Positions 1 to 42,776 of a stretch of 64,000 nucleotides of DNA are shown one piece after another (the stretch's first letter is position 1; every line of letters starts with the position of its first letter). The position numbers and the translations under genes were made by a program. The stretch is taken from the NCBI GenBank assembly GCA_000004985.1, contig GG738866.1; one strand, written 5' to 3'. A model generated the notes under the pieces. It worked only from the letters and a program-made list of their open reading frames with translations. It had not been told where the DNA came from and ran no database searches. This DNA is from Naegleria gruberi (lineage: Eukaryota).

Positions 1-1
1 T

Positions 2-1417
2 TCAGCATTTAAGGTTCAAGGATTGACAAGCTTTATTGAAATTGTCTTTGCTGACTTGGTTTTCAAGAGCGAAAATGTTAGTTGTGTCTATTTTGATGAA
101 GTTTCGAATGCTTGGAGTAGGGATGGATTGATTACTACTCTTGTCAAGAAACAAACAGGTGGATTTAATGTCAAATGTGAAACTAATCACTTGACAGCTT
201 TCTCTGTTGTTGTCAATGATGCAATCACACCAGTTCAACCAACTCAATCGCCAGCAAAGAGTGGCACCACTACTACAACTACTGACAATACATTGGCTAT
301 TGTTCTGGGTGTGGTCATTCCTTCTGTTGTGATTATTGCAGCAATTGTCACAGTCATCATTGTTGTAGCAATTGTTTGCATGAGAAAGAAGAAGAAAGGA
401 CAGTCAACAAATCAACCTAAGCTTACCAAACTTGACAGTGTCTATGAACAACCTAACATATCTGCTTATGAACATTCAAAACCTCATGACATTTTGACAG
501 ATACTGAACTTTCTGTCATGTCTGATTTCCCATCAAACAATAGCATGTTAATCAAACCATTAATGAGTGTTTACACAAGCACTGGTTCAACATCAAGCAC
601 TTCTTCTAAATTTGATCCAATGTCCAGATATAAGAATCTTGTTAGAATTGGTCAAGGCGGTTTTGGAAGTGTTTTCAAAGCAGAAGATGCCAAGTGTGGA
701 AATCAACTCAAAGCCCTCAAAGTTATCAAATATTCATCAGTGGAAGAATTGAACAACATTTTGAAGGAAGGAAATCGTTTAATGAACATTTCACATCCAT
801 ACATTCTCCATGTGAATGATGTCTTGATTGACTCTGATCAAATCCTATGTATTGATATGGACTATTATGAAAAGGGAGATTTAAATCAATTTGTAAAGGT
901 TGGTTCTGAATGCCCTGAAAATATTCTCAAACAAATTCTCTATCAAATGTGTAATGCTCTCGATTATGTTCACAACACTTTACAAATTGTTCACAGAGAT
1001 ATCAAACCATCGAATATTTTCATTAAGGAAATGTCTCAAGATAGTATTCATTTGATTTTAGCAGATTTTGGATTGGCTAGACAAACTCAAGGAAGTGTCA
1101 TGTTTTCCTATGCAGGAACTCCATTGTTCATGTCAACTGAGTTAGCTCTCGGTGGTAAATATACTGCCAATACTGATATTTATTCATTGGGTGTGACATT
1201 GTATCAAATTATTACAAAGGATGTAGAAACTTCATTGTCTCACATATCGCTCACTATGGATACAGCCGAATTTGAAAAGACTATTAGAAATAAGATGAAA
1301 CAAGCCAACCCTGCACTTTCGGATGAATTATTGGACATTATTGTGAGCATGTTGAAGAGAGATTATGCCACAAGACCTTATCCAAAGGATATTCTCTCCA
1401 ATTCCTACTTCCAATAA
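2..1417 (+). CDS. Receptor-like Ser/Thr protein kinase, 5' truncated by the window edge. Extracellular GPS (GAIN-type) motif, Thr-rich stalk, one TM helix, cytoplasmic kinase domain.
   Basis: The reading frame is open from position 2, and the track ORF at 23 begins at a TTG that is not a true start. Residues CVYFDEVSNAWSRDGL...NVKCETNHLTAFSVVV match the GPS consensus C-x-[FW]D...W...G...C-x-C-x-HLT-x-F-[AS]-V-[LV]. Next come TTTTTT and the TM segment LAIVLGVVIPSVVIIAAIVTVIIVVAIVC followed by a KKKK stop-transfer. Kinase subdomains are present: IGQGGFGSVFKA, ALKVIK, HRDIKPSN, DFGLAR, GTPLFMSTE. Stop is TAA at 1415..1417. Confidence 0.8.
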   Translation, partial: SAFKVQGLTSFIEIVFADLVFKSENVSCVYFDEVSNAWSRDGLITTLVKKQTGGFNVKCETNHLTAFSVVVNDAITPVQPTQSPAKSGTTTTTTDNTLAIVLGVVIPSVVIIAAIVTVIIVVAIVCMRKKKKGQSTNQPKLTKLDSVYEQPNISAYEHSKPHDILTDTELSVMSDFPSNNSMLIKPLMSVYTSTGSTSSTSSKFDPMSRYKNLVRIGQGGFGSVFKAEDAKCGNQLKALKVIKYSSVEELNNILKEGNRLMNISHPYILHVNDVLIDSDQILCIDMDYYEKGDLNQFVKVGSECPENILKQILYQMCNALDYVHNTLQIVHRDIKPSNIFIKEMSQDSIHLILADFGLARQTQGSVMFSYAGTPLFMSTELALGGKYTANTDIYSLGVTLYQIITKDVETSLSHISLTMDTAEFEKTIRNKMKQANPALSDELLDIIVSMLKRDYATRPYPKDILSNSYFQ

Positions 1418-1488
1418 CTATATTACCTTTTTATTGTAATAAAATTTCCAATTTTTTCTAGAAAATAAATTCTCAAGTTCACCAACAG

Positions 1489-2145
1489 ATGGAACTTGCA
1501 AAACTTTTTTTCAAATTAAAAATTACAAAAAAAATGACTTGCATTGAGGCTGGTATTTTCTACGGAGTAAAATTGAGAAGACTCAACAAGAACCCATCAT
1601 TCCTAAACAAGGTTTTATTAATTTTGTACAAACAAGTGAATAATATTGAATTGACAAAGGGGGAGAAGGAATTTGCCGAAAACTTAAAGACAATTGAACC
1701 ACAAGCATCGTCTTCCAATCTAGAAGATGAAGAGGATGATAAACCTAAAGTGCCTCCTCCTAAAAGTGCACCAAAGAGAAGACATGTCGAAGATGATGAA
1801 GGAGAGGATGAGGATGAAGTTGATGAACAAGTTGATGAAGAATATAATGTAGAAGAAGAACAATTGGAAGAATATGATTACCAGTTAATTTACAAAGCTC
1901 AAGAGAATTTAGGATTTTCTGTGATTACTTCAAAGGGAAATACATGGAATAGAAGTGGATTTGATTGTTTAGAAATAGTTGAGCCAGTCAATTCGGATAA
2001 TTGTAGCTCATTCAATCCACAAGATTTACTCGATATGGAAAAGAGTGTTTCAGATGAGAAGAGAAATAATGTTGCCATGTATTTGAAAATGATTGGGCAT
2101 CCACCTGCTTCATTATCTTGGTATTTGTATCCAAGTGCTGGTTAA
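1489..2145 (+). CDS. Hypothetical acidic protein, 218 aa, with a long D/E-rich central tract.
   Basis: Single ATG-initiated ORF. The DEGEDEDEVDEQVDEEYNVEEEQLEEY acidic run has no recognisable catalytic motif. Coding-like codon usage on the same strand as its neighbours. Confidence 0.45.
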   Translation: MELAKLFFKLKITKKMTCIEAGIFYGVKLRRLNKNPSFLNKVLLILYKQVNNIELTKGEKEFAENLKTIEPQASSSNLEDEEDDKPKVPPPKSAPKRRHVEDDEGEDEDEVDEQVDEEYNVEEEQLEEYDYQLIYKAQENLGFSVITSKGNTWNRSGFDCLEIVEPVNSDNCSSFNPQDLLDMEKSVSDEKRNNVAMYLKMIGHPPASLSWYLYPSAG

Positions 2146-2273
2146 ACCATTAAATAATTTATTATTAAATTGTAAAGTGCATTTAAAAAATTGTAAACTT
2201 TTTAGGTTCCAAAAAGGAAATCATTAATAAAACACTAAAAAGGTCAATATTCAAATTGATCAACACACAAAAA

Positions 2274-3065
2274 ATGTCTCTACTTCTCACTCAAGCCAGT
2301 TCTTGGATCAATTCTAATGAAACTCTGAAAAACTCCTCCATAACATTACACATTCTCTATTCGATTTGTCACAATATATTCGAACATCCATCGGAAATTA
2401 AATTGAGAACCCTCAAGTTGGATAATGCAAAATTTAAAGCCAATGTTCTCAATGTTGAAGGAGCTGTCGATCTGTTATATTTGTGTGGATTTGAAATGGA
2501 TACAAATAGCAATTGTTTAATTCTCAAACAAGTGAATGAGAATATGTTGAAGGAATTACATGATTTGGGAAATTTATTTAATAGTTATTGTTCTGATGAT
2601 GTTAAATCACCAAAACCAACAACTGTTTCGCATCAATCATCACATACAACAGTATCATCACATGATCCTTTCACAAGTACTCCAGAAAGAGCTCCTCCAG
2701 TGGTTCGTCATCATGATTTATTTCATCATCATGACACATCTCCTCCACCAATTAGCACTACACAAACAGTAAGCCAACAACAACAACATTCAACAAGTCA
2801 TGATTTCAATGATGAAGAATATTTGAAAAAACAACATGATTTGGAGGAGAGAAGAAAGCAACTTGCTGAGGAGAAACGAATCAAGAAGGAGGAAGCCATG
2901 AAAATTAAGAATCAATCTAAATTGGATAGAAAGGAAAAACATGATGAAGATGAATATGAACATGGATTGAATATTCCACAACATCATGCCACTCATCATC
3001 AAGGAAATACCTCTTCAAATCCATTCTATTCAGGAATGACTACTTATAAGGATCTTGGTCAATAG
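2274..3065 (+). CDS. PUB (PNGase/UBA-or-UBX) domain protein with a C-terminal charged coiled-coil and His-rich tail.
   Basis: The real ATG is at 2274; the track start at 2256 is TTG. TLHILYSICHNIFEHPSEIKLRTLKLDNAKFKANVLNVEGAVDLLYLCGFEMD fits the PUB-domain pattern (L..I..N......K.R......N..F..V....GA..LL...GF). EERRKQLAEEKRIKKEEAMKIK is a coiled-coil. Confidence 0.6.
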   Translation: MSLLLTQASSWINSNETLKNSSITLHILYSICHNIFEHPSEIKLRTLKLDNAKFKANVLNVEGAVDLLYLCGFEMDTNSNCLILKQVNENMLKELHDLGNLFNSYCSDDVKSPKPTTVSHQSSHTTVSSHDPFTSTPERAPPVVRHHDLFHHHDTSPPPISTTQTVSQQQQHSTSHDFNDEEYLKKQHDLEERRKQLAEEKRIKKEEAMKIKNQSKLDRKEKHDEDEYEHGLNIPQHHATHHQGNTSSNPFYSGMTTYKDLGQ

Positions 3066-3114
3066 CTCTTTCTGCCTTTGTAAATATATTTCACATCACA
3101 CATTAAAAAAGCAA

Positions 3115-4808
3115 TTAAATCTTGACAAACAAATTATTATCAGCATCAATTTGACCATCAAATGTGGAAATGCCATTTGATGAATTATTGGATGGTAATC
3201 TCACTAAATTCAGAACACTAGCCAATAGTTTTGATTTCAAATTGAAATCTCCCTTAAGAATACGCGAATGACTCACTCCAGCCAAATCAGGCATTGAGTT
3301 TACTTCCAACAAGTGAGGTTGCAAATTGCTATCAATCATAATATCATAACCATATAATTGAAAACATTTGGATTTTGATTGGTGGAATGTTTCATCTTGT
3401 TTTTGTGGATTCAATATGGTGAATTGGAGAGATTCTCTCACCAGTAATTTGATTTGTTCTTCAATTACATTCCAATCAATGTCCATCTTTTCCAGACATG
3501 GTATCAGTTCAGGCAAATACATGTTCGAAAAGAAGCCAAACTTTTGTGTGATGGTCTCATTCTGAATCTTGTTTTTCTTATCATTGACTGAATTATTGGT
3601 AATGTGAATGAATGGATTCTTCAAAGTATCTAAATCTGTCGTATAATCCTCACTTGCGAATCGAACAATGGCATCTCTGTAAAAGTAGGTGTGAAATTCC
3701 TCAGTGTTGGATCCAAATCTTTCTTGAGAACCTCCACCAATCAAGAGAACATACATTCTCATGTCAAACTTTTTGTTTTCAATCAATAGTGGATTGTCAA
3801 TGTATTTAGAGACAACCATCTTGTGTTTGCCAAGTTTTAAACTCTTTTCCGAAATGATTCCACTCTCAATCTCACATGTTGGAATTTGTGGAAATTCCCC
3901 AACAATAACTTGTTGATAGGATTGATATATTTGAATTCCTCTTCCTTTTAATTATCATCATTATATTTAAATTAATATTATAATAAAAAGTATTAATTAA
4001 CAAAAAACAAACCTTCTCCAGATCTACCTGGTTTAACAATCCAAATAGATTTCTCTGTTTCCTCCTGATTTTCACAATGATTAATAAACAAATTCAATTG
4101 ATCTGGCAAATAGAATGATACGGGAACATATTGTGATTTGGATTTAACTTTCTTCTCGGATAAATCCTGAAAATTCAATGCCATCAAACTCTTATTACAT
4201 AATTCATGTGAATTAACAAAGTGATTAATTAGAGTATGGGATGGTAACTCGAACCATTTGACAATGTTATTCCTTGGAAAAACATGTCCCCAGAATAGAG
4301 GTAAACCTCTATAATTATCATCTTCCAGGTTAGACTTGTTGTTCTTGTTGAATTGTGCAAAATCTTCCTTGTTGATGAGGAGATTAAAACCATTCTCTTC
4401 AAAGGTTCTTCTTAGGACGGAGGCTGCAAACTTTAATTCCTTTGCCATTGATATCCAACAATAGGTTTTGTTGTTGTTGCTGATAGGAGAAGAAAAAGAA
4501 GTGGTATTGTTGTTATTAGAAGAACTTTCCAAGGATGGTGATGATGAAGATACAAGCGTAGTAGAGGTGGTACTAGAATTAATATTATTTAATGTTGTTG
4601 TAGACTTCTTCTTATATAAATCATCATTGGACGGGATAATGTGTTGGTAGGGACAATCATCGTGCTTGCAAAACCCATTACTTCTGTAGAACCAACAAAT
4701 TCCCTGCACTGTTTCCACTGTAGAAAAGTGAATAAACTTTCCTTCTGGTTGATGTTGTTTACTTGCTTCCTCATCACGATGCAATTCTGTAGAGGAACAA
4801 CAAGACAT
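3115..4808 (-). CDS. Tubulin-tyrosine-ligase-like (TTLL) protein, two exons: join(4013..4808, 3115..3944), about 542 aa.
   Basis: The N-terminal exon ends ...IWIVKPGRSGEG at a GTTTGT donor. A 68 bp intron (3945..4012) ends in AG. Exon 2 continues RGIQIYQS, completing the TTL ATP-grasp motif KPGxSxxGRGI. Further TTL motifs follow: KFDMRMYVLL, HITNNSVN, QLYGYDIMIDSNLQPHLLEVNSMPD. ATG is at 4806..4808 on the minus strand. Confidence 0.85.
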
Positions 4809-4916
4809 TTTTAATTTGATGGTCAAAATTCAAGCAACATGCTGGTACAATCATCAATACCAATATTGACTTTGATGCTTACAGTTATTCAAAAATTCAC
4901 TTAATTATGGGAGAAA

Positions 4917-5118
4917 GGGTGGCTCCAAAACTGACGGATAGTGCAATGTCTGCTTGAAACCTACCAAAGGGTGCTCTCAACTTGTTTCCAAGGAGGCACA
5001 CCTCTGGACCCGACAAAAAATTGAGTTAATAGTAAACGCGCCCCGTAGGACGCTTTCAGCTATTAAACTGAAAAGAACAGATACTACACTCGATCAAAGC
5101 CAAAAGGCCGAGAAAGAT
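4917..5118 (-). ncRNA. U2: U2 spliceosomal snRNA.
   Basis: The minus-strand read begins AUCUUUCUCGGCCUUUUGGCUUUGAUCGAGUGUAGUAUCUGUUCUUUUCAGUUUAAUAGCUGA, near-identical to the canonical U2 5' end and including the GUAGUA branch-point-pairing box. An Sm site AAUUUUUUG is present, the stem-loop IV loop is AUUGCACUAUCC, and the 3' end is ...GGAGCCACCC (canonical U2 ends CACCC). Confidence 0.9.
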
Positions 5119-5574
5119 GTTTTGTAGAAAAGGCTTACCAGTAGTGTATAAATGCCATTTCAAAGTGGCTTTGTTGGTGGAGAAAATTTGTGGGATTTGA
5201 ATATTTTTAAACAAGTTTGAAAATAAAATTGTGAGGAATGAAAAAGCCATCACATACCTTTCATTGATCCATATGTTCAGTTACAAAGCTTTTAGTTCTT
5301 TATTGGCTTCGTCTTTCATGATCACTGGAGCGGAAAGAAGAAAAGCGTTTCGTTTGAACATGTGCTTCGCTTCACATAGAACAAAGCAAACTTGGTACTA
5401 CCTAGGTATTGTTCTTGTGATGTCATATTGATGACATCGATTGATGGTGCGAAGATCGTTGTCGGCTGTTTTTTTTTTATTATTTAAAATAATTTGTTAA
5501 CGGTAATATTTTTAAAATTACCAAACTTAACACTAGAGGGTATATTAAACCTTTTATTTTACAATTAATGTGCT

Positions 5575-5645
5575 CGTCTCGTGGTGTAATGGTAGCATAG
5601 TGGACTTTGAATCCATTGACGGAGGTTCGATTCCTCCCGAGACGG
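5575..5645 (+). tRNA. tRNA-Gln, anticodon UUG, 71 nt, no intron.
   Basis: Cloverleaf read by hand. Acceptor CGTCTCG pairs with CGAGACG. D arm GTGT/AATGGTA/GCAT. Anticodon stem GTGGA/TCCAT with loop CTTTGAA, anticodon TTG. T arm GGAGG/TTCGATT/CCTCC. Discriminator G. Internal Pol III A box TGGTGTAATGG and a perfect B box GGTTCGATTCC. Close to canonical eukaryotic tRNA-Gln(UUG). Confidence 0.9.
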
Positions 5646-5666
5646 TAAACGTGGCGAGCCATGAAA

Positions 5667-5676
5667 TTTTTATTTT
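5667..5676 (+). terminator. Pol III terminator: T5 then T4 run, 22 nt downstream of tRNA-Gln.
   Basis: TTTTTATTTT lies immediately 3' of the tRNA. An oligo-T tract is the standard RNA polymerase III termination signal. Confidence 0.5.
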
Positions 5677-5925
5677 CAAATTGTTCAAATTGATGCATCA
5701 CTTGCATGTTAATTTTGATGATACTCCAGTTCACTCCATCAATTCCACACAAAATTTCTCCATTAAGCTGAAATACCGTACTCAACGGTCCAAAATGAAC
5801 ACTTTTACAAAAACTGAAACAGCCCATTCAATGATTCACTTTGCACAATTTGCTATCCACGCAAACGCTCCCAACACCAAGATTTCAAAGATTTCGCAGC
5901 AAACCAACAATCCAAATTAAAAAAA

Positions 5926-6831
5926 ATGAAAATCTCAAGCCTTATTGTGTTCTCCGTATGTATCCTCCTCATCTTGGGAGGTGTTGCTTCGATGAATGCT
6001 GCTATTCCAATGCGTGATCAAAAGACTCATAAATCACTCTCTTTTACAATGAAGAAGATTTCTGATTCTACAGAATCACAAAAGCCAATTAAGGCTGGTT
6101 ATTTGTGCCCAACTTGTATTGGTAGGTTATTGTTGACTATTCATTCCTTATTTAATTGAACAATGTTTCTTCACTATTATTTATTTGTTCTTCATATAAT
6201 AGATATTCTCGATTTTGCATTGGCTGATTTGGCTGCTGCTGCTGATGCTGGTGTTATTGGTTCTTGTTACAAGTTGTGTAATGCCATTATTGGATCTGGT
6301 ACTTATGCCTGGGAAGGTTGCAATGTTATCTGTGATGCTATTGGTATCAATGTCTTTATTGACATTATCAAGAAGGCTGATTTGGATCCAATTTATGCCT
6401 GCCAATTGGCTAACATTTGTCCAGTTAAGGATTGTACTGCTAAGAGATGTGCTTCATTCCTCAACTCTGGCTTCATTCCAGAAAAGATCCAACACGGTTT
6501 TCCAACAACATTCTACTCTGGTTTGCAAGTTTATAATGCTTCAGGTCCTGGTGAAGTTGTCTTTACTTTGAATGGTGCCTTCTCCACTGAAAATATGATG
6601 CAACGTTTCTACCAACCTAATGGTTATACTCCTGGTACTTATTCTATCAAATTTACCGTTACTACTAAGGATGATGATGCTAAGGCCCTGGAATGGTTGC
6701 CAGGTCTTTATTATGCTGTTGTTGATGTATGTGAAGGTGTCTGTGGTGATCTAAAACCACACACAAGAACCCTTGCACAAGCTAAGGCTAACTTTACATT
6801 GACTCCTCCTCCATGGCCAGGCAAGAATTAA
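5926..6831 (+). CDS. Secreted cysteine-rich protein with saposin-like Cys spacing, two exons: join(5926..6121, 6203..6831).
   Basis: ATG is at 5926 and is followed by a signal peptide MKISSLIVFSVCILLILGGVASMNA. Exon 1 ends ...CPTCIG at a GTAGGT donor. An 81 bp intron (6122..6202) ends in AG, and exon 2 is in frame with the 6163..6831 ORF. The mature region shows paired CxxC and CxxxC motifs (CPTC, SCYKLC, CNVIC, ACQLANIC) as in saposin-B, amoebapore and naegleriapore-type folds, followed by a roughly 130 aa Gly/Tyr-rich C-terminal domain. Confidence 0.6.
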
Positions 6832-6899
6832 ATTCTTTATTCTATTCGATCAATTATTTCTCTTTAATTCTTGTTGTATTGCTTAATTGGTAAAACAAT

Positions 6900-8177
6900 T
6901 TATTGTAAAACCCAATTATTCGATAATGTGGAAAGTTTTTGAGTAGGAACAGATCGATTGGTCATTCTATCTCTCATGAAAATGATACTCAACTGTTTCT
7001 TAACAGTGTTATATTTGAAAACATAGAAGTAGTGTGAAAAATCCAATCCTTTCAATGTGGAATTTTGCAATGTGGAATATTGTAAGGATTTCACCTTCTT
7101 TCCCTCTGATAAAAGACTTGTCAGGGTCTTGATATGCTTACTATCAGTGATGAGATTGTCCTCCAAAATAAATACCTCGTCACTTTCTAAATCTGCAAAG
7201 ATGTGAACAATAATTTCACATTCAGAATCAAAATTGGCAAATTGACAATATGCTTCACTTTCATTGACATTGAATGGATAGTGTAATACATCAACAGTAT
7301 AAATTCTCTGAATGATGACAATACCATTCGATTGCCTATGAAAATGGTTGGACGGAGAGAAATCTCTCTTCAGTCCTAATATTTCAAAATTCTTATACTT
7401 GACACTCTTCATACCTTCCATCAAGTTTAACAATTTCACAAGATATTCATTCAAAACCTTGCATGATTCCATTCTTCTTTGTGGCAATAATTGAGCATCA
7501 ACATTTTTGAATCGATTCATTAAATTTTCCAATTTGGAATCATACTTTTCAATCAGGTCACGTTTCGTATAAATTTCAACTCCTTCAATAAGCGAAACAG
7601 TTTGAGCCAATCTAAACGCCAAATATTTCAAATCTTCAATACTCAAACCTGATTCAATTTTGCTAAAATCCAATCCTTTCAATGCTTGAATTCTCGTGTT
7701 CAAATCAAACGATTTCAAAGCATTCACGACCAAAGTTCTAACACTTTCAATTCGTCTAATCTTTACAAGAATATTCTGAACAGTCATGACACACTTGAGT
7801 GGCACAATTCTCTCCACTCTCACCAGCCATTCATTTTCCAAAAATACATTATCCGAATGTAATTTCATAGTTTCCAACACTCCATTATTGACCTCATCAA
7901 CAATTCCTTTAAAAACCCTTCGAACACAACTCGGACTCTCTCCAAACAATTCTAAAACATTCAAATCTTCAGCATCCACTCCCATCTCAGCAATGAAACA
8001 ACACTCCCTATGAGAAGGCATCCTATTCGTCTCATAATTAAACAGGAAAATCCTATCCCTATCCAACGAATCAGAAGAGCCATGAATTAAACTTGGAGTA
8101 GCTTGCAACAATTCAATAATTCGTTCCTTCTCCTCATCAGAGAGAAGAACTTTTCTGAAAATTTTCATCATCATCAT
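6900..8177 (-). CDS. Hypothetical conserved-looking protein, 425 aa, no recognisable motif.
   Basis: Long ATG-initiated ORF on the minus strand (MMMMKIFRKVLLSDEEKERIIELLQ...). Mixed alpha-helical composition. I cannot name a family from the sequence. Confidence 0.55.
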   Translation of the reverse strand: MMMMKIFRKVLLSDEEKERIIELLQATPSLIHGSSDSLDRDRIFLFNYETNRMPSHRECCFIAEMGVDAEDLNVLELFGESPSCVRRVFKGIVDEVNNGVLETMKLHSDNVFLENEWLVRVERIVPLKCVMTVQNILVKIRRIESVRTLVVNALKSFDLNTRIQALKGLDFSKIESGLSIEDLKYLAFRLAQTVSLIEGVEIYTKRDLIEKYDSKLENLMNRFKNVDAQLLPQRRMESCKVLNEYLVKLLNLMEGMKSVKYKNFEILGLKRDFSPSNHFHRQSNGIVIIQRIYTVDVLHYPFNVNESEAYCQFANFDSECEIIVHIFADLESDEVFILEDNLITDSKHIKTLTSLLSEGKKVKSLQYSTLQNSTLKGLDFSHYFYVFKYNTVKKQLSIIFMRDRMTNRSVPTQKLSTLSNNWVLQ

Positions 8178-8236
8178 ATCATCATCATTTAAAAATATAA
8201 ATAAAATTATTATTATTATTTAATGATGATCAATTC

Positions 8237-8747: not shown

Positions 8748-9929
8748 ATGGTCGAACAAAAATTTCAATACAATCAACAACAATGCATTCTCAAAGTTAT
8801 GATCTGCACAGGTGAGGACGATCCATTAGGTTTCCTCCTTGCTGAACAATTACTCACTCGTGGTTCGAAACAATTCGAACAAAATCCATTCGCTGAAGCA
8901 TTAGAAAGTAACATTTCACCATTTGCTAGATGTGTTCATGTTGGATTATTGGTTCATCCCACTCATGTAGAATCTGACAATGTCAAGAATCTCATTCAAA
9001 AGTATCAATCTACAAATTTATTAACCTGCATCGTTGGAGATGCTTTGGAGGAGAAACCAACCGAATTGTGTAAGAAACTTGATCATTATCAAGTGATTGT
9101 TTCGGCTGCCTTGAGAAACTCCATTCTCCATCCACATACTCAGTTTAGAACAGAAATGAATTTGATTGAAACTTGCAAATTGTTATCTCAACAACCATAT
9201 GGAATTTTCAAAAGTTTCGTTCCATGTCAATTCATGTTTGATTTTTCCAAGTTACAACAAAGTATGGTACTTGGAATGGGAAGTAACTTTTCAATTGTTT
9301 GGTCTTTCATTCAGGAACGTAAATTAATTGTTGAAGCATTGAGGGCCAAGTCAATTCCATATATGGTATTTAATTGTGGATTGTGCACTGACTATTTAGT
9401 TGAGTTTCTCACATTTTCAGATATTATCGAAGAGAGGAATATCAGAGGTTATGGAGGAGATATGACTGTTCAACTCTATTTAGATGGAGACTTCTCAGAT
9501 TTGACAATTGACTGCACTTCCCTTAAAGACATTGTCCAAATTGCTGCTTGTAAAATTTCACAAATTGGAACTGATGTTCCCTGTGGATTCCAAGAGTATT
9601 CATTCAGGGGAGATCGAATTAACTTGTTGCAAATTGCACAATCCCTAAATTGGAAATTGGTCAAGTTGGGTTCCACCAAGGATTGTGAACAGTATATTCA
9701 CAAACTTGTGTCCATTATTCAACAAGATGAAAATCATGGACACGATCAAGATAAGTACAGACTCGCTGCTCTATTGATGAAATACTTGATCGGAACCAAT
9801 CAAGCTGTAATGTCTGATTCACTCCTAACTCCGAAAGCTAAATTGGTTGAGAAGGGTTTCAACTTTGAAAATGTCATTCATTTCACCACTGAACATTTCC
9901 CAATTTCACAAACCAATCCAATCCACTAA
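8748..9929 (+). CDS. Hypothetical protein, 393 aa.
   Basis: ATG at 8748, single ORF. The N-terminus KVMICTGEDDPLGFLLAEQLL is faintly Rossmann-like, but no confident family call is possible. Confidence 0.55.
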   Translation: MVEQKFQYNQQQCILKVMICTGEDDPLGFLLAEQLLTRGSKQFEQNPFAEALESNISPFARCVHVGLLVHPTHVESDNVKNLIQKYQSTNLLTCIVGDALEEKPTELCKKLDHYQVIVSAALRNSILHPHTQFRTEMNLIETCKLLSQQPYGIFKSFVPCQFMFDFSKLQQSMVLGMGSNFSIVWSFIQERKLIVEALRAKSIPYMVFNCGLCTDYLVEFLTFSDIIEERNIRGYGGDMTVQLYLDGDFSDLTIDCTSLKDIVQIAACKISQIGTDVPCGFQEYSFRGDRINLLQIAQSLNWKLVKLGSTKDCEQYIHKLVSIIQQDENHGHDQDKYRLAALLMKYLIGTNQAVMSDSLLTPKAKLVEKGFNFENVIHFTTEHFPISQTNPIH

Positions 9930-12067: not shown

Positions 12068-15000
12068 TTATTTGCTCACATAAGAAATTATATCAGCATA
12101 AGACATGGTAACAGGCAAAGTCTTGTCTTCCGTCAATTTCTTCAAGAATGTTCTGTGGAAATCATTGAAAAGTACCTTCTTGAATTTTTCATTGTTTGAA
12201 GTTTCATTAATAGCATTGGCAATTCTGACTGGCATTTCTGACTTGAGTTGAACTCTGAAAAGTTCGCACAAATCAAAAACTTTGGTAAGGAGAGCATCAT
12301 CAGAGTATGGCACTTCGCTTGGTTCTTCTTGTAAAGAGAATTTGTTAAAGTTCAAATCATGAATCAAGTCAAAGAACTTTTCTCTATCACCATCCCATTG
12401 CTTCTTACCTAACCAAATGTAGATAGCAACACCATCACAGAGCAAGTAAACACCATCGTCTGGATTAATGAGCTTTCTGGAGAGAGGTTCTAATTTGAGA
12501 ACCTTTGGCTTATCATTTTCTTGTTCGGCCGATTCTTCAGCAAGTAATTGTGAAACATTAATCATGAGTGGGTGAACCATCAATGTAGATTGTTGAATAG
12601 AACATGATGAGAAGAATAAAGAAGCAGCACTTCTACCATCAGCTCTAACTTCCTTACCACCAATAAGCATGGCAGACTTTGAAAGTCCACAAATGAAAAG
12701 AGGTAAGTATTGAAGAGCTGTAGGCATGACAATTCCCATACTTCCAACATTGGCAACAGTCTTATATCCAGCAACAGCTCCCTTAAGCCACTTATCAATG
12801 AGAATGTTCTTGGAATTGGTAATACCTTCCTTTGGTAAATCTGCAGCCAAAATCTTACCCATCAAATTAGTTAAACAAGTAGTTTGAGTACTATTATAGA
12901 GAACAGACAATGAAGTAGTAATTGGAAGAAGAAGGTTACAAACACGAATCTTTCTTTGACCTTGATCAGAAGTGTACAATACAGCAACTTGAACGCTGAC
13001 ATTAGGAGTAGAAAGCATTGCACCAGTGTGAACCATTTGGAAACCAAAAGTTTGAGTACCAGAAATGTTTGGTAAAGCCATCAAGTCGTGACCTCTAATG
13101 AAGAAGTTACCAAAGAAGTTAACAATCTTCATACCACTGCTCACTCTAATTCTCATAACACTTTCAAATCCTGTAATTTCTTCAATGATATTTTGTTTCA
13201 AATCAGAAGCCAATTGATGAGATAATTGATCTGGATATTCGTACAATTTACACCAACCACCAGTAAATTTAGAAAGATTGGAAATGGTGGAAATGTCCAA
13301 GAAGGAGTTACGTGATTCTGGAATTGAATAACAATACAAGTCAATACAAATTTGATCCTTATTGAAGAGGAGAGCAAAATCTCTATAGCTTTGATCAGCT
13401 GGTTGGAGTAATTTGGCTTCAGCCTTTTCATTACCGTAATCGTTCAAATTTTCACGATTGGTGAGTTTGTTTGGTCCAATAGTTGGCAATTGAGAAAGGA
13501 AGATGGAAACCTTTCCTCCAAATCTACCGATCAATCTACCAGCAGCATTCAAAGCAGATCCCAAACAACATTCAGCATTGGTTGATCCCTTAAACATCAA
13601 TTCCAATTTGTCCAATAAAATTTCAACTAAATGATAGCTTTCTTCCAAGTTGACGAGCAAATCGTTAGGAAGTGGTAAGAGAGATTCATTCAATTCACCA
13701 ACAACTAATTGCTGAGGATTTGAGAGTGTTGGTCTCAAATTGAAAAAGTGAATCTTGGTATCAAAACAGAGAATTCCAACCATGGTTCTTGGTGATTTTT
13801 CTTTCAATTCCTTCAAACAATTCTTGATAGCCTTAACAGCACTTTGGAAAAGTCCTCCATTAATACTATGGAAACTGGTATCAATCAAGAATAAGTATGC
13901 TGGTGGTTGAGGTGGACGAGACATGTATTCTTGTGGTGCCAAATATTCATAAACACCATTGACAAGTTCAGGTCTCTCGAAAAAGTCTTGTCTAACACCA
14001 TTATTATCAGTTGGGCTATAGTATCTCTTTGGAACTTCATTGATATTCTTACAAACGTTACATTGCCACTTGTTTCCGTATTCGATAAATTGAACAAATG
14101 GATTGATATAAGTTCTACAATTGTTACAACGAACAATAAAGTTTCCTCCAATGGTTGGTACTTCCTTTTGATAGAATGGATTTAAAACACAACCAAATGG
14201 TAAGCCATATCTGTTCAAAAGTTCTAAACTTTGTGGAACAGCATTACAACTCATTTTCATTGTGTTTTCATCACTTTGCAGGAATTTAAAAACTTCACTT
14301 GCTGGTCTATTTTCAGTGGATCCATATTTTTCTCTGAAAAGATTATAATGTGCTTGATAGAGAGGAGCAACATCAGGTTGTCCAGAAACATGAGAGGTAA
14401 GTAACTCGGCAGCATCCTTTGGTTGAGGCATATTATTTGGAGGTACAATTTGAACAAAAGGTTGTTGGTTTTGTTGTTGATTTAAAGTTAGTGTTCCCAT
14501 GTGAGAAATAACATCTTGAACCATGAAATTATGTCCTTGTTCAAAGGCTGATTCAGATTGAACACTTGATCCTTGAAGAGCAGATCCTGAAATTCCAACA
14601 CTTGGAGGTGGAGGTTGAACAACACCTGTAGTTGGTGGTTGGTGATGAGATTGTCCTACTGCACCATGTACATTCTCTCCAAATTTAAGTTCTGTTGGTG
14701 GTGGACCAACTGGCTTTGATAAAGCAGAAGTAGTAGGATTGAAAAAGCTGTTTCCGGTTGGAGGAGGTGGAAGGCTTGATCCAAATGTATTTGTTGTTGT
14801 TGGAATGGTAGAACTCGGATCATAAAAACCACTACTTGTTCCTGTCGATGGTTGATAAGAAGATGAAGAAGAAACAGGATTATAAAAACCGTAGCCTGTT
14901 GTTGGAGTGGATGGAGAGGAAAATCCTCCAACACTAGAACCTCCCATCATCATACCACCTGAAGTAGTAGGTGTAGTTGTTGTTGTTGTATTGGTACCAT

Positions 15001-15082
15001 AATTTCCGTATGGATTTGAAGTAGTTGTCTGAGATGGTTGATTCGTAGAGGTAGCTTGGAGAGGATTATAAAAGTTGTTCAT
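12068..15082 (-). CDS. SEC24: COPII coat subunit Sec24, 1004 aa, with a Pro/Gly/Thr-rich N-terminal extension.
   Basis: Sec23/24 zinc finger CNNCRTYINPFVQF...WQCNVC, followed by trunk (vWA-like), beta-barrel, helical and gelsolin-like regions of the expected length. The N-terminal low-complexity PTTSGG / PPPP region is typical of Sec24 rather than Sec23. Convergent with the upstream gene, with only 34 bp between the two stop codons. Confidence 0.9.
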   Translation of the reverse strand: MNNFYNPLQATSTNQPSQTTTSNPYGNYGTNTTTTTTPTTSGGMMMGGSSVGGFSSPSTPTTGYGFYNPVSSSSSYQPSTGTSSGFYDPSSTIPTTTNTFGSSLPPPPTGNSFFNPTTSALSKPVGPPPTELKFGENVHGAVGQSHHQPPTTGVVQPPPPSVGISGSALQGSSVQSESAFEQGHNFMVQDVISHMGTLTLNQQQNQQPFVQIVPPNNMPQPKDAAELLTSHVSGQPDVAPLYQAHYNLFREKYGSTENRPASEVFKFLQSDENTMKMSCNAVPQSLELLNRYGLPFGCVLNPFYQKEVPTIGGNFIVRCNNCRTYINPFVQFIEYGNKWQCNVCKNINEVPKRYYSPTDNNGVRQDFFERPELVNGVYEYLAPQEYMSRPPQPPAYLFLIDTSFHSINGGLFQSAVKAIKNCLKELKEKSPRTMVGILCFDTKIHFFNLRPTLSNPQQLVVGELNESLLPLPNDLLVNLEESYHLVEILLDKLELMFKGSTNAECCLGSALNAAGRLIGRFGGKVSIFLSQLPTIGPNKLTNRENLNDYGNEKAEAKLLQPADQSYRDFALLFNKDQICIDLYCYSIPESRNSFLDISTISNLSKFTGGWCKLYEYPDQLSHQLASDLKQNIIEEITGFESVMRIRVSSGMKIVNFFGNFFIRGHDLMALPNISGTQTFGFQMVHTGAMLSTPNVSVQVAVLYTSDQGQRKIRVCNLLLPITTSLSVLYNSTQTTCLTNLMGKILAADLPKEGITNSKNILIDKWLKGAVAGYKTVANVGSMGIVMPTALQYLPLFICGLSKSAMLIGGKEVRADGRSAASLFFSSCSIQQSTLMVHPLMINVSQLLAEESAEQENDKPKVLKLEPLSRKLINPDDGVYLLCDGVAIYIWLGKKQWDGDREKFFDLIHDLNFNKFSLQEEPSEVPYSDDALLTKVFDLCELFRVQLKSEMPVRIANAINETSNNEKFKKVLFNDFHRTFLKKLTEDKTLPVTMSYADIISYVSK

Positions 15083-19656: not shown

Positions 19657-22600
19657 TTAAGGATGAAGAGTATTGTCAATTGAAGTCAGTGTATACTCAC
19701 AAACATCTTCTTGGCCTGTTTTTGATCTGTCCTGTTTTGGGGTTTGATTTTGGAATTGATATAAATTTTGTTGTGATCCATTGTTGGAACCACCATACAT
19801 GGAATTAGATCTGGAGCGAGCTCTTTCAACTTCACCCAAATCAACTCTGAGTGGTGGATATTCTCTCTGTTGAATTTCTGGACATTTCACTTCAAATATT
19901 CTTGTTGATTCAGAAAGCCCTTTTAGTGGATAAACTCCCAAATCTCTAGCAGAGAACACTCTCTCAGCTTGAATTCTCTGTCTTTTCTTGGAGAAACTTG
20001 AACTGGACGAGAAGCTGGCACTATTGGTTTCATCAACATTTAAAAAGTTACTATAACCTGCTTCAACATTTGCTTCATCCAAGTATTGGACATCCTTATA
20101 AAGAGATCTGGTCTTGTAGAATAAATCCTCGCTCACACATACTTGACCACCATGGGCCAAGGCTTCAATACGGGCAGACTTGTTTACAACAGTACCAAAA
20201 TAATCATATCTCTTCATTGTCTTGTCAAAAACACAGTCACCCTTACCATAATGCAAACCAATTCTCACTCTCAAACCACTCCAATAGGCTTTTCTTGTCT
20301 TAGAGTCCCACTCTTGTCTACAATCCCATTCATGATATAGATCACTAGGCCATTTAGCTGAAAGCAATTCTAATTGAACAGCCATAGCCCACAACATGGC
20401 ATCATATGGATCTCTGAAAGCAACATAAAAACTGTCACCGTTCGTCTTTACTTCATACCCTCTATAGAGTTGGAGATTTCTTCTCATTATTTGATTGTGA
20501 ATTTCCAAAGATTCCCTCATAGCCTTCTCATTACCTTGCCACAACTTGGTACTATTCTGAACATCAGTGAATGCACAAGTGATAAAACCTGATTTAGGTG
20601 CATACTTTTCGCTTGAATCCTTTCTAAAACAGCATAAAAGCAGTGTCATTATAGAACATGCACAAATAATGCAAACGGCAGAACCAATAGAAATACCAAC
20701 AATTGCACCAGTTGAAAGTGTTCTTACTATTGGTTTCAATCCACATGTGTCTAGATCTAATTTATAGGTGGTATTCAAATTTGAAGAAGCATATTGCAAG
20801 TACAACATTTTAGAACCTTGATTACATCCACAAGTAGTCATATCCAAATCACAATTAGATGAGGAAATAGATCTTGCACTAATTGTTGTTGAAGAAGTGG
20901 TAGGACAGGTGTCCCCATAAGGTCCAAAATAATCTTCACCTAACTCAAAAACTGATCTCAAAAATAACGAAGAAGTAAATGTTGATCTAGTCATTTCAAT
21001 ATTTGCTTGTTGCATATAGCTTAAAATGTTCGATACCATTGTTGCAAGGGCATAGCCTTCATAGGCTTCCATAGTCTTATTCAAATTAGGGAAATATGCT
21101 GGATAATCAATCAGAAATTCTCTGGCCATTATATTTGTTGAGCCCGCTTTAGCAAATGAAATAAGGAAAGAAGTGGAAATAATATTGGAAGGGAATGTGA
21201 ATCCTTTGAATTCCACATCTGACATGACCTCAGATGGAATGAGAATAAGTGAAGATGATCCTGTATATCTGTTCAAAAAGTCCTTCACATCCACAGCACT
21301 GGCCATCACAATAACAACATCTCCCAAACTTTGTGTCCAATCAACAACACTTCTGGATCTAGAAAATTGCTTGTATGAAGGAGTTATATCTTCATTACTT
21401 GTCTTGAAGAAGTAAGTTACGTTAGCCACGGCTGATTTCCAATACTGATCAGTACTGTGAATGATTGTAACATCTGGTTCCGTAATGATGCTACTCGCAT
21501 ATCTTGTTGCTGAAACTACTTCTTCAACAATACTTGGTCTCAAATTCACTACATATCTTGAGTATGGATATCTCAACTCTGGATGTCCTGAAACAGATCC
21601 TATCATTGCTACTTGGTATGAGTTCAACACATCTCTAATAGCAGATACATTACCAGTAATTACAGAGCCCAAAATACCAAATACCTTATTCTTTTCAATA
21701 AGGGTTTTAGCCTTTGAAATAATATCTGTCTCATCAGTATAATACTCTGAATAAATGTGTACTTGTGTATCGATAGTACCTTTCTCATTCATTTTGGAGA
21801 AGAGTGATTGAATACCAGTTACCAGATCATTGTTGACATTCTTATATGAAGAGGGATAAAGTCCTCCAAATATGATTGGACTCTTGATACCAGTAGAAGC
21901 TATAATGCTGTCCTTCTGAGCTCCACATTTTTCCTTGTTGTACACAAAATTATCAACCAACTCAAAGGATGTGCCAGTGTATTGGTAAATAAAATGAGAT
22001 CTCATGCCTTGATTACAGGAACCAGACATAAATTTACCAAATGGAATTTGGTATTTCAAAAATTCCTTACTGGAATATAATGTTTCATAGATGGATTTAC
22101 CATTGATAGTTGAAGTAAGAGGAATATTATCTAACACTTCAATAATAAAACTTCCAACAAGGAAACCTTCGACTGCTCCCAAAGTGGTTGGATTTGTTTC
22201 ATAGTATTTAGCCATTATTGAAGAATAAGAATCTATGAGAGTATGTTTCACGCTGAGATAAGGGAATGATTGTGAAATGTAGAATTTAACACTAGACATA
22301 GAAGGATTAGAAAGAAGATTGGATAGTTCTGCCTCCCATGAAATCTGCCTAAAGAAGAGACAAAAGACATGAATCTCATTTCTCAGACCAACAGATTTGA
22401 TACCTTCCAATACTGATTGTAAATATTTGAAACTAGTAACATCTTCAGGAATGGAAATGATAACTACTTGAGGATTTGCATCTTGGGAAAGTGAGTTGGT
22501 AATCAAAGATGAATTAACAGTTTGATCCATAGAAAATAGATAGCTACTGTCAATAGCTAGTCCATATGCTGAAATGATGGAAGAGAATTCTGAAAAGATG

Positions 22601-38802: not shown

Positions 38803-39432
38803 ATGCCATTTAAGGAAACTTTAAAAACCAAAGAAATGTGTCAGCTCATGGCGTCAAGGCTTGTGAAATGGTTCATGCCTACCGCCAACTATCATGTTCG
38901 AAAAACAATCAAAAAAAACACAATGATGAACAACTCTAACATCAAGGAATTACATTTTAATAATCAAGAAACAAGCCTTGTTTCGAATGAAAAGATGATC
39001 AGCTCACCATTATCAGAAGAAACATGCTGTACTAACGAACCAGAGAGGGTTTGGATTCATTTCGGTCACATTCCACATGTTTCGAATAGTTTACAACCAA
39101 CAAGCCTTGAGCAAATGAAATCAACTCTTCACCAACCTAAAGTGATGATTGAGAAACAGAGAAAAACAGAAAGACTCCTTCAGGATAGAATCACAGGTAA
39201 ATTATTCTATCAATCAACCGAATCTCATTCGAAATCTCTCAAACAACCTCTGTTTATCCCATCTCAATTCAACGATTCTGAAAGAAAGCCTCCTTCGATC
39301 AAGGAAGAACGTAGAAGAGCCAAAGAGAGGTCTCAAAAAGCCTTGTTAGAAAGCATTCGAAACCAGCCTATTTCACTTCCAACATCCTATTCCATCGTGA
39401 GAAGAGTACTTAACTTCGATGATGAGGAATAA
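38803..39432 (+). CDS. Hypothetical low-complexity protein, 209 aa, founder copy of the local repeat family.
   Basis: ATG-initiated ORF. Its 3' half plus downstream flank is the template for the two degenerate copies at 40055..40570 and 41590..41982. Confidence 0.4.
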   Translation: MPFKETLKTKEMCQLMASRLVKWFMPTANYHVRKTIKKNTMMNNSNIKELHFNNQETSLVSNEKMISSPLSEETCCTNEPERVWIHFGHIPHVSNSLQPTSLEQMKSTLHQPKVMIEKQRKTERLLQDRITGKLFYQSTESHSKSLKQPLFIPSQFNDSERKPPSIKEERRRAKERSQKALLESIRNQPISLPTSYSIVRRVLNFDDEE

Positions 39433-39720
39433 TCAAAATGTCCACCCAAATATCACCAAACGTTCTACGTTCCCTCCAAATAATGGCCTTATATAATAAA
39501 CTTCAATTGTAATCTCAAAAATTTCAGATCTCCTTCCTGTTTCAAGAAAATCTTTTAAAGGAATTTTTGAAGGAGATTTATTTGGTACAAAACTTCCATT
39601 ACTCCAAGCAATTATTAATTGTTGCAAAAAATTGACCTTATTTATCAGAAATGCCCGAGATCATTTTCTCCATTCTGTCACCTTGAAAAAATTGCATATG
39701 AACAAAAGTTCATTCTCGAA
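39047..39720 (+). repeat. Local tandem repeat family, copy A (intact, overlaps the 3' half of gene 38803..39432 and its 3' flank).
   Basis: Aligns by eye with 40055..40570 (offset 1010 bp) and 41590..41982. The shared blocks are CCACATGTTTCGAATA.TTTACA.CCAA.AAGCCTTGAGCA, GATGATTGA.AAACAGAGAAAAAC.GAAAGACTCCTTCA.GATAGA, CAAACGTTCTACGTTCC and GACCTTATTTATCA.AAATGCC. Confidence 0.6.
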
Positions 39721-40054
39721 TTACCAATTCTAAACTTTGAAACTTTAATGGTTTCGAATAATACAACGACTCCAACCACGATTGTATTTGCTCATTTCCT
39801 TATTCTATTTGATCTTTGATGAAAATCGTTTAGGCGAATCATATTATTAAAATGTCATTTTCATGCATGCTTAATATTTTCGAAATGGTCAATAAACTAC
39901 GATATTCGAAATGTAAAGTGACTAGGATAACTAACTTAACTATTACCTTTTTACATTTGTGAAAGATTGAAAAATTCTCATAAAAGTTTCGAATAGATGT
40001 TATATATACCAACAACATCTCTGCTACTCATACGACATGTCATGCATCCAAAAT

Positions 40055-40570
40055 AATACACCATTTAGTCCAGAGACACTTTCCACATGTTTCGAATAAT
40101 TTACATCCAAAAAGCCTTGAGCATGAATTAACTCTGCAACACCTAAAATTATGATGATTGAAAAACAGAGAAAAACTGAAAGACTCCTTCAAGATAGAAT
40201 CACACACAGAGTCTTTCAACATCCTATTCCAACACGAGAAGAGTGCTAAACTTTGCTGACGATGAATAATCAAAAATCACACAAATATCATCAAACGTTC
40301 TACGTTCCATGCCAACACCATAATAAATTTCATAAAATCTCAAAAGTCGTTCCAAATAATTCTATAAAAGGATTTATTGAAAGAATGTCCAAGCAATTTG
40401 ACATACTTGGTCCTCTTCAATTACCTTATAAAAATGACCTTATTTATCACAAATGCCGATCATATTCTCCTTCCATCAACCACAGCTGTCTCCATGAAAA
40501 TTGTTGATTAAAATAATCAAACAGACCCTTAATTGGAAGATCATCATGTTGCATCTCAGTTAGGGTTCTT
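40055..40570 (+). repeat. Local tandem repeat family, copy B (degenerate, with a roughly 190 bp internal deletion and frame disruptions; pseudogene-like).
   Basis: It has the same blocks as copy A but lacks the segment GTAAATTATTC...CACTTCCA, and stops interrupt the reading frame. Confidence 0.6.
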
Positions 40571-40743
40571 TTTGAGATGCAATTCTCTGATTGAGACGCT
40601 AACCCTGGTAAGACTGTGTAGTCTGATTGTGTGGGGTACTTATGTAAAATGGAGTTCAATACTTGTTGAAGAAAATTTTTGAAACAATTTTTCACAACAT
40701 TCAAGAGTTAAACAAATAAACAACAAACAAGTTGAGTTATCTG

Positions 40744-41217
40744 ATGGAAAGTTCAAGAAGAATGGGTGGTGGCTCATCTGGAGAGGTTGCAATCATGATG
40801 GAAGAATCAGAAATGTTAAAGGAAAGAGATCAGGAAGGCTTGGAAAGGTATTGTAGAATAGTTTCGAATACATGTGGAGATTATCCTTTGGCATGTTGGA
40901 GTGGAAGGCTTCCCTTTTTTACTTCTATTGATGAGAGTGTGCATAACACGAATCATTGGGATGATCTTTTCAATCAATACTATTCAACTCAACATGTATT
41001 CGAAACATGTCAGGACGAATTGAAACTTTCCACTTTGAAAAGAAAGAGAAGAGTGAAAGAGCCTTCTTTGAGTGCAACACATGAAGAACCTATTGACAAC
41101 GAGGAACAAGATGAATTAGTACAGCTGAATGAAGAGGATTCATTCTCTGGACGAAACATTAAAAAGACGAAACGTTTACATGCATGCTCTTCATTATCAG
41201 AGCAGAAGGAAGAATAA
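40744..41217 (+). CDS. Hypothetical protein, 157 aa, lying between repeat copies B and C.
   Basis: ATG is at 40744; the track start at 40732 is TTG. No motif. It contains two in-frame instances of the locally enriched GTTTCGAATA motif, one on each strand. Confidence 0.3.
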   Translation: MESSRRMGGGSSGEVAIMMEESEMLKERDQEGLERYCRIVSNTCGDYPLACWSGRLPFFTSIDESVHNTNHWDDLFNQYYSTQHVFETCQDELKLSTLKRKRRVKEPSLSATHEEPIDNEEQDELVQLNEEDSFSGRNIKKTKRLHACSSLSEQKEE

Positions 41218-41589
41218 ACATCAAAATTATATTCACCCATAAACATGTTCATTCAATATAAAGAAAGAATTCGTTTTTTTATAGTTTTGTTTTTGTTGAT
41301 CAGAATAATGTGAATGAATTGTTTGAAACTTGGACATGTAGTGATGGTAACGAATGGTATCTGTAAACTCTAGAATAGGTTTCCTGAGAATATCATCCAT
41401 TTCGAATAGCATCTCTCCAATATTTCACTTCCCAACAACATCTTTCAATCTCTGAAACGATGCAGTAGTTTCAAATGATATCCCTGCTAAGATTGAAAAA
41501 CTTGATAATCACACTATCTTAGTCACGGTTAATATTTCATATTAATTGCTTGGATGATATTGGGGATTCCAATAACACTGAGCTTACAT

Positions 41590-41982
41590 CGAAAAAGCGT
41601 TGAACAAATGAATTAACTCTGCAATACCTAAAGTGATTATTGAAAAACAGAGAAAAACTGAAAGACTCCTTCAAGATAGATAAAATCACACAAATATCAT
41701 CAAACGTTCTACGTTACATGCCAACACCACAAAAAATTTCATAAAATCTCAAAAATTCAGGTCTCTTTCCTCTTGTTCCAAATAATTCTATAAAAGGATT
41801 TATTGAAAGAATGTCCAAGCAATTTGACATACTTGGTCCTCTTCACTTACCTAATAAAAATGACCTTATTTATCACAAATGCCGATCATATTCTCCTTCC
41901 ATCAACCACAGCCTAAAAAACCCATGAAAATTGTTGATTAAAAAAATCTAACAGACCCTTAATGGAAGAGCATCATGTGCTC
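41590..41982 (+). repeat. Local tandem repeat family, copy C (degenerate, larger internal deletion, truncated by the 50 nt gap).
   Basis: It is closest to copy B, sharing AATTAACTCTGCAA.ACCTAAA and the whole 3' flank TCTATAAAAGGATTTATTGAAAGAATGTCCAAGCAATTTGACATACTTGGTCCTCTTCA.TTACCT.ATAAAAATGACCTTATTTATCACAAATGCCGATCATATTCTCCTTCCATCAACCACAGC. Confidence 0.6.
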
Positions 41983-42032
41983 NNNNNNNNNNNNNNNNNN
42001 NNNNNNNNNNNNNNNNNNNNNNNNNNNNNNNN
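41983..42032. other. Assembly gap: 50 N, conventional unknown-size scaffold gap.
   Basis: Run of exactly 50 N. Confidence 0.95.
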
Positions 42033-42047
42033 TAATAATAGGAGAAA

Positions 42048-42249
42048 GGGTGGCTCCAAAACTGACGGATAGTGCAATGTCTGCTTGAAACCTACCAAAG
42101 GGTGCTCTCAACTTGTTTCCAAGGAGGCACACCTCTGGACCCGACAAAAAATTGAGTTAATAGTAAACGCGCCCCGTAGGACGCTTTCAGCTATTAAACT
42201 GAAAAGAACAGATACTACACTCGATCAAAGCCAAAAGGCCGAGAAAGAT
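42048..42249 (-). ncRNA. U2: U2 spliceosomal snRNA, second copy.
   Basis: Identical to 4917..5118 at offset 37131. Confidence 0.85.
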
Positions 42250-42705: not shown

Positions 42706-42776
42706 CGTCTCGTGGTGTAATGGTAGCATAGTGGACTTTGAATCCATTGACGGAGGTTCGATTCCTCCCGAGACGG
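42706..42776 (+). tRNA. tRNA-Gln(UUG), second copy.
   Basis: Identical to 5575..5645 at offset 37131. Confidence 0.85.

Follow-up and report, generated by a model that had tools for sequence, protein, structure and literature searches.

A back-to-back U2 snRNA and tRNA-Gln(UUG) gene pair in Naegleria gruberi and its near-identical occurrence on an orphan contig between scaffold gaps

The genome of Naegleria gruberi was published in 2010. One of its scaffolds carries a U2 spliceosomal snRNA gene and a tRNA-Gln gene side by side on opposite strands, and the same stretch of about 1 kb appears again 37 kb further on, between runs of N. This raises the question of what is repeated here: a unit of snRNA and tRNA genes that moves or multiplies as such, or a single locus that the assembly presents twice. 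We addressed the question in a window of 64,000 nucleotides of contig GG738866.1 (GenBank assembly GCA_000004985.1). The window is gene-dense, with a G+C content of 34.5%, and includes at 12068-15082 on the minus strand a 1004-aa open reading frame (ORF) that is 100% identical to N. gruberi Sec24. Rfam cmscan returns four matches above the gathering score in the whole window, two to U2 and two to tRNA. In what follows, copy 1 is the occurrence near 5 kb and copy 2, or the island, is the occurrence near 42 kb.

The U2 and tRNA-Gln genes of copy 1

The U2 gene of copy 1 lies on the minus strand at 4908-5120 (Rfam limits 4915-5120), and that of copy 2, also on the minus strand, at 42046-42251. 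Both match the RF00004 model full-length (positions 1-192) and score 121.4 bits, where the gathering threshold is 46. The probable +1 of copy 1 is at 5118 (AUCUUUCUCGG) and the 5' end of the RNA reads AUCUUUCUCGGCC. The branch-point recognition sequence GUAGUA is found within GAGUGUAGUAUCUGUUCU, and the Sm site is AAUUUUUUGU, with its U6 run at 5020-5015. Stem-loops I, IIa, IIb, III and IV are all present in the alignment to the Rfam structure, with which the MFE fold (z = -4.0) agrees. The insertion in stem-loop III is longer than in the Rfam consensus (26 versus 14 unaligned nt), which is ordinary lineage variation. Judged by its sequence, the locus is a canonical member of RF00004.

The tRNA-Gln(UUG) gene occupies 5574-5646 on the plus strand in copy 1 (ARAGORN; Rfam RF00005 gives 5575-5645 and 68.8 bits) and 42705-42777 on the plus strand in copy 2 (ARAGORN; Rfam gives 42706-42776, likewise at 68.8 bits). 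In copy 1 the gene is intronless and has an A box, TGGTGTAATGG, at 5582-5592 and a B box, GGTTCGATTCC, at 5624-5634, the latter an exact match to the consensus; in a motif scan, exact A and B boxes were confined to the tRNA. A T5-A-T4 run of the Pol III terminator type (5667-5676, plus strand; the T5 is 5667-5671) starts 21 nt past the gene. Because the internal A and B boxes are standard and a T-run follows downstream, tRNA-Gln is most simply read as a Pol III unit. The two genes are divergent, U2 on the minus and tRNA-Gln on the plus strand with their 5' ends pointing apart, and these ends are separated by 453 nt with the Rfam limits or by 455 nt if U2 starts at 5118. A preliminary description of this stretch had called a full U2 gene and a tRNA-Gln(UUG) gene on these strands, 456 bp apart; Rfam and ARAGORN agree on the genes in both copies, and the separation is in keeping with our measurement.

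Copy 1 stands between two protein-coding genes. Its left neighbour, on the same strand as U2, belongs to the TTL family (3115-4808, minus; Pfam TTL, 3e-42) and contains a 68-nt intron at 4012-3945. The spliced model encodes 541 aa, and its product is a 100% match to the N. gruberi 'tubulin tyrosine ligase' P0121; the 3' end of U2 is ~100 nt upstream of the start codon (4808-4806, minus). The right neighbour, sharing the strand of the tRNA, is a predicted secreted-protein gene (5926-6831, plus; ATG at 5926-5928), and the N terminus of its product resembles a signal peptide (MKISSLIVFSVCILLILGGVAS...). This gene has at least one intron, and its ORF at 6163-6831 gave no Pfam family match. Copy 1 fills nearly the whole of the 1.1 kb intergenic region between the TTL gene and the secreted-protein gene: by BLASTN and the gene models, the part matched by the island is 4902-5929. 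A larger segmental duplication was considered and rejected, as the copy 1 flanks have no DNA or translated match (BLASTN and TBLASTX) elsewhere in the window.

The minus strand upstream of U2 offers putative promoter elements at 5147-5169. They comprise a TATA-like TTTATA at 5152-5147 (-34 to -29 relative to 5118) and a near-palindrome, GCCACTTTGAAATGGC, at 5169-5154 (-51 to -36 of U2), which was also scored as a hairpin; both are candidate elements read from one Naegleria snRNA locus. The U2 gene contains internal runs of T4, T4, T6 and T4, and the first T5 downstream is at 4895-4891, 13-20 nt beyond the 3' end. Pol III terminates at internal U-runs of such length in most eukaryotes. The combination of a TATA-like box at about -30 with internal U4-U6 runs suggests that U2 has an upstream promoter to itself, the likeliest type being Pol II.

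The spacer between the genes (5121-5573, 453 nt) was examined with cmscan, a motif scan and folds. It contains a palindrome, GATGTCA-TATTGA-TGACATC, at ~5419-5438 and a T10 run at ~5469-5478, and its folds score z = -2.9 on the plus strand and -1.8 on the minus strand. A cmscan search of the spacer at E<=1 for a further RNA family or tRNA-like element returned nothing beyond U2 and the tRNA themselves, and the motif scan found no tRNA-like pair of A and B boxes in it. A 115-aa ORF lies inside the U2-tRNA block.

Trypanosomatids are famed for snRNA, 7SL and U3 genes that rely on divergent upstream tRNA genes. By analogy, tRNA-Gln could supply A- and B-box elements that recruit TFIIIC and TFIIIB for Pol III transcription of U2. 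A dependence of this kind would explain the joint travel of the two genes. The divergent orientation is that of trypanosomatids, both Naegleria and trypanosomatids belong to Discoba, and in Willaertia a 5S rRNA gene and a tRNA-Ser gene are likewise divergent, with 185 bp between them. However, the spacer holds no tRNA-like element or A/B pair, the internal T6 and three T4 runs of U2 would stop Pol III in most eukaryotes, and a TATA-like box at -30 belongs to U2 itself. Moreover, co-duplication of the two genes is trivial if the island is an arbitrary 1 kb piece. The spacing also speaks against a tRNA-dependent promoter, since 453-455 nt compares with 93-105 nt for trypanosomatid snRNA-tRNA pairs (Nakaar et al. 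1994, as cited in PMC2784804) and with a tRNA-like A box at 104 nt in the case of Leishmania major U2, where tRNA-Ala follows at 211 nt (PMC4950102). Of the trypanosomatid traits, divergent orientation is present at the N. gruberi locus, and a tight spacing and, at the level of sequence, a Pol III-compatible transcript are absent. We consider transcription of U2 from the tRNA promoter highly unlikely.

The island and its edges

The large left contig of the window stops at 41,982 inside a local repeat family, which a repeat search and self-BLASTN place at 39067-41982. Three partial copies of this family (39067-39480, 40077-40549 and 41581-41978) show 84-89% identity across 100-300 nt, with sub-blocks of up to 99%. 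The family has a period of ~1.0-1.4 kb and is unrelated to the U2-tRNA block. The contig ends partway through a unit of ~1.4 kb. This repeat family probably made the assembly break off here, and it explains the gap better than an array of U2 and tRNA genes would. The gap that follows, 50 N at 41983-42032, has a nominal size, because the interrupted repeat unit requires ~1 kb more sequence. Past 41,982 we would expect more units of the 1.4 kb family.

Copy 2 is an orphan contig of 1,026 bp (42033-43058) that carries U2 on the minus and tRNA-Gln on the plus strand and has N runs on both sides. The N run on its right, 43059-64000, comprises at least 20,942 nucleotides and extends to the end of the window. 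It is more likely to be a real scaffold gap than window padding at the end of a scaffold, since 43,058 real bases in a scaffold of 469,335 bp do not agree with simple tiling by 64 kb or 32 kb.

BLASTN aligns the island to copy 1 with 1021 identities over 1026 positions and 2 gaps. Homology spans 4902-5929 of copy 1 and reaches the first and the last base of the island; a match of ~1 kb with 99.5% identity lies well outside what chance would give. The lone interior difference over ~1,000 nt is T42836 in the island versus C5705 in copy 1. All else is at the ends, with 2 substitutions in the first 8 nt and 2-3 single-base losses in the last 25 nt, and five of the six differences fall inside the terminal 33 nt of the island (binomial P≈2e-7). 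The losses at the right end each drop a single non-A base from an A-rich run. Losses of this sort typify Sanger read-end miscalls.

No head-to-tail, wrap-around or circular-permutation junction is seen in the island. Nor does it contain any sequence particular to a second locus, as it is homologous to copy 1 up to both ends. Because homology reaches the last base and the differences cluster at the termini, the edges of the island are read or contig ends and not biological repeat boundaries. We infer that these ends are covered by very few reads, and that the 1,026 bp represent two or three overlapping Sanger reads.

These observations bear out much of what the preliminary description had said of copy 2, namely that the block recurs ~37 kb away with a single internal substitution, here C5705 versus T42836, and that it is bounded by gaps and has ragged ends. 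The description had further delimited the recurring block as 4903-5925. The recurrence stands, but the limits do not: homology covers 4902-5929, and the ends quoted are those of the island. A defined module of 1,023 bp is also lost on this evidence, as the block ends coincide with contig ends and the terminal differences resemble read-end errors. The distance of 37.1 kb between the copies is close to the size of a fosmid insert. We examined a fosmid-mate geometry and rejected it, finding no coherent way in which a read originating at 5 kb would end up at 42 kb, and we treat the agreement as a coincidence.

Origin of the island

The island might be a genuine dispersed duplicate near 42 kb, recent in origin and at least 1,028 bp long, whose reads were mostly collapsed onto copy 1. 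Such a duplicate would span U2, the spacer, tRNA-Gln and, on either side, the margin of the neighbouring gene at the least. Placement within a scaffold would normally demand mate-pair links to the neighbouring contigs, and one interior substitution separates the copies. In addition, snRNA genes are commonly multi-copy (PMC10161547), as with the three U2 copies of Trypanosoma cruzi (PMC4950102). One difference per kb, however, is matched equally well by an allelic SNP or by an error in a consensus of low coverage; Naegleria has been described as a heterozygous diploid for the most part (PMC9928731). The island is also tiny and without second-locus-specific sequence, whereas at normal coverage the assembly of a real second locus should exceed 1 kb. 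Moreover, a second near-identical TTL protein is missing from the N. gruberi set: the TTL cluster P0121 consists of one member on one contig, and a second copy of this flank is therefore absent from the assembly. On balance, we place a genuine duplicate just short of an even chance.

The same features can be read as assembly redundancy, in which left-over reads of the 4.9-5.9 kb locus were misplaced at 42 kb, and there would be a single U2/tRNA-Gln pair here. Such reads might have been left over for their poor ends or odd insert size, might represent the second allele, or might come from a clone that was chimeric or mis-tracked. One to two Sanger reads would roughly cover the length of the island, errors crowd at its ragged ends (P=2e-7), and its interior is identical to copy 1 one base aside. 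It has no unique flank, and the 50-N gap before it is nominal. What this origin accommodates poorly is the position of the island, since redundant contigs usually land no more than a few kb from their source and not 37 kb off, and the mates of reads from position 5 kb would presumably indicate 0-13 kb. Redundancy is a plausible origin, to which we give somewhat less than an even chance.

A tandem or clustered array has also been suggested for this locus: many U2-tRNA-Gln units would be hidden in the N run, which is 20.9 kb or longer, and the island would be their collapsed consensus. A large unresolved gap does adjoin the island, and arrays of small-RNA genes are known in protists (PMC2652664; PMC10161547); given that U2 is multi-copy or arrayed in some Discoba (PMC10161547), the proposal is not far-fetched. 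Yet unique genes surround copy 1, and the island tracks the unique flanks of copy 1 to the last base with no wrap-around. TRF finds no tandem repeats in the U2-tRNA block, so the short tandem repeats of such arrays are absent, and another repeat family accounts for the contig break. A collapsed high-copy contig would, besides, be expected to be deep and clean-ended, not ragged. The preliminary description had posed a fair either/or in asking for a genuine repeat or a misplaced contig. Its suggestion that a U2-tRNA array would fit the 20.9 kb gap next to the island fails on the unique flanks of copy 1, the lack of wrap-around, the blank TRF result and the other repeat at the break. Its further suggestion, that the assembly shows too few copies, may be right. 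A tandem array of U2 and tRNA genes is improbable and is the least likely reading of the island.

The account that we prefer, and hold with moderate confidence, combines a genuine copy 1 containing independent transcription units with an island that is an undelimited orphan contig, be it an extra copy or a redundancy. At copy 1, an Sm-class U2 and tRNA-Gln(UUG) would form independent back-to-back units between the TTL and secreted-protein genes, with U2 probably transcribed from its own upstream elements and not from the tRNA promoter elements 455 bp off. Copy 2 would be a low-coverage contig of ~1 kb, probably two or three Sanger reads, bounded by read ends, and the scaffolder would have set it into a gap that starts within an unrelated local repeat family. 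The island may stem either from a very recent duplication of more than 1 kb collapsed onto copy 1, or from left-over reads or the other allele. The chances of an extra copy and of redundancy are roughly even; scaffold placement requires mate-pair links, which tips the balance slightly towards a real second copy nearby.

The practical value of these results is as a note on the assembly: the region past 41,982 is unresolved, and the 50-N gap is nominal. Counts of U2 and tRNA-Gln genes taken from the N. gruberi assembly may err by one, either way.

Relation to known systems

As individual genes, both members of the pair conform to their families. Compared with canonical U2 (RF00004) and nuclear tRNA-Gln(UUG), they show the same model matches, landmarks, A and B boxes and T-run, and only stem-loop III is longer. 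The biology of U2 and tRNA-Gln is already known and ordinary, and nothing shown here makes the pair a special repeat module. The island, for its part, resembles Sanger-era orphan contigs in its read-length size, its N bounds, its end-to-end near-identity to another assembled region and its terminal errors. Unlike the usual orphan contig, it sits 37 kb from its twin and not adjacent to it, and this distance keeps a real second copy in play.

Arrays of small-RNA genes offer a looser parallel. In Diplonema papillatum U2 is present 163 times, in tandemly repeated SL-5S-U2 units (PMC10161547), and Entamoeba has tRNA arrays, some with 5S or suspected snRNA genes, in which the units carry short tandem repeats (PMC2652664). 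The likeness consists in a stretch of ~1 kb with tRNA and snRNA genes that is seen more than once beside unresolved sequence. In contrast to these arrays, there are two occurrences in N. gruberi, of which copy 1 lies among unique genes, and they come without a head-to-tail junction or short repeats.

Two pairs of divergent small-RNA and tRNA genes were seen in heteroloboseans, U2/tRNA-Gln in N. gruberi and 5S/tRNA-Ser in Willaertia. Orthologous or paralogous loci of Willaertia magna, N. fowleri and N. lovaniensis reached through Sec24 and TTL homologues (L001-L007, ~116 kb) contain no U2 gene, and their gene order is not conserved with that of the window. Metagenome scans with a 34-nt U2 pattern and a 35-nt tRNA-Gln pattern gave no matches, and a protein database queried with a spurious antisense-U2 ORF for ORFs miscalled over U2 genes in other Naegleria assemblies gave no candidates. 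It is conceivable that back-to-back pairing of small-RNA and tRNA genes is conserved in heteroloboseans, with the TFIIIC and TFIIIB of the tRNA acting at a relaxed distance and the module duplicating as a functional unit; these factors may then serve as a promoter or as a chromatin-opening element for the neighbouring gene. We give conserved pairing of this kind a very slim chance.

With the snRNA, 7SL and U3 genes of trypanosomatids the N. gruberi locus shares the divergent upstream tRNA, and both hosts are discobids. It differs from them in a spacing of ~455 nt, in the absence of a tRNA-like element, in the T-runs within U2 and in the TATA-like box. If a systematic pairing of snRNA and tRNA genes in Heterolobosea were true, it would bear on the origin of the small-RNA promoters of trypanosomatids.

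The TTL gene and the 3′ flank of U2

The ORF-supported model of the tubulin-tyrosine-ligase-family (TTL) gene, the left neighbour of U2, occupies 3115–4808 on the minus strand and encodes 541 aa, with one 68-nt intron at 4012–3945. Its N terminus bears a CCCH-type zinc-finger-like motif (CWFYRSNGFCKHDDCPYQH), and the N. fowleri homologue (P0125) carries the name 'C3H1-type domain-containing protein'. Since the database N. gruberi TTL protein (437 aa) covers only 78% of the 541-aa model, the public model may be truncated at its N terminus.

The TTL start codon lies only ~100 nt downstream of the U2 3′ end, both genes being on the minus strand (4808–4915). Hence, the promoter or 5′ UTR of TTL must be compressed into the U2 3′ flank or overlap it. 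This flank includes a T5 run at 4895–4891.

We compared window positions 1–8200 with the N. lovaniensis and N. fowleri loci that harbour TTL homologues. The N. gruberi order is kinase, PUB-domain protein, TTL, U2 and tRNA, while the homologues are surrounded by genes for an RZ-type AAA protein, saposin, TCP1 and a phosphatase. No gene order is shared between these loci and the window segment; either the homologues are not strict orthologues or micro-synteny is poor within the genus.

The U2–tRNA spacer

A palindrome in the spacer, GATGTCA-TATTGA-TGACATC, precedes a T10 run (both within 5419–5478). The TGACATC of this palindrome is similar to a bZIP half-site pair. On the plus strand, spacer positions 5200–5560 fold better than shuffled controls (z = −2.9); the same segment has no RNA family match.

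A repeat family at the contig break

Three partial copies of a local repeat family (39067–39480, 40077–40549 and 41581–41978), spaced 1.0–1.4 kb apart, span 39067–41982 with 84–89% identity and sub-blocks at 99%. The family overlaps ORFs 38803–39432 and 40732–41217, neither of which has a Pfam match. The 42 kb contig ends within the family, which therefore probably extends into the adjoining gap.

5S and tRNA genes in Willaertia magna

At positions 20078–20462 of a Willaertia magna locus (JBEGDK010000005.1), genes for 5S rRNA (minus) and tRNA-Ser(AGA) (plus) sit back-to-back with 185 bp between them. Outside the window, no other tRNA gene was seen, and this one is likewise the divergent partner of a small-RNA gene. 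A second 5S gene (9361–9479) is solitary and immediately upstream of Sec24. Thus, 5S genes are dispersed in this heterolobosean, scattered among protein genes.
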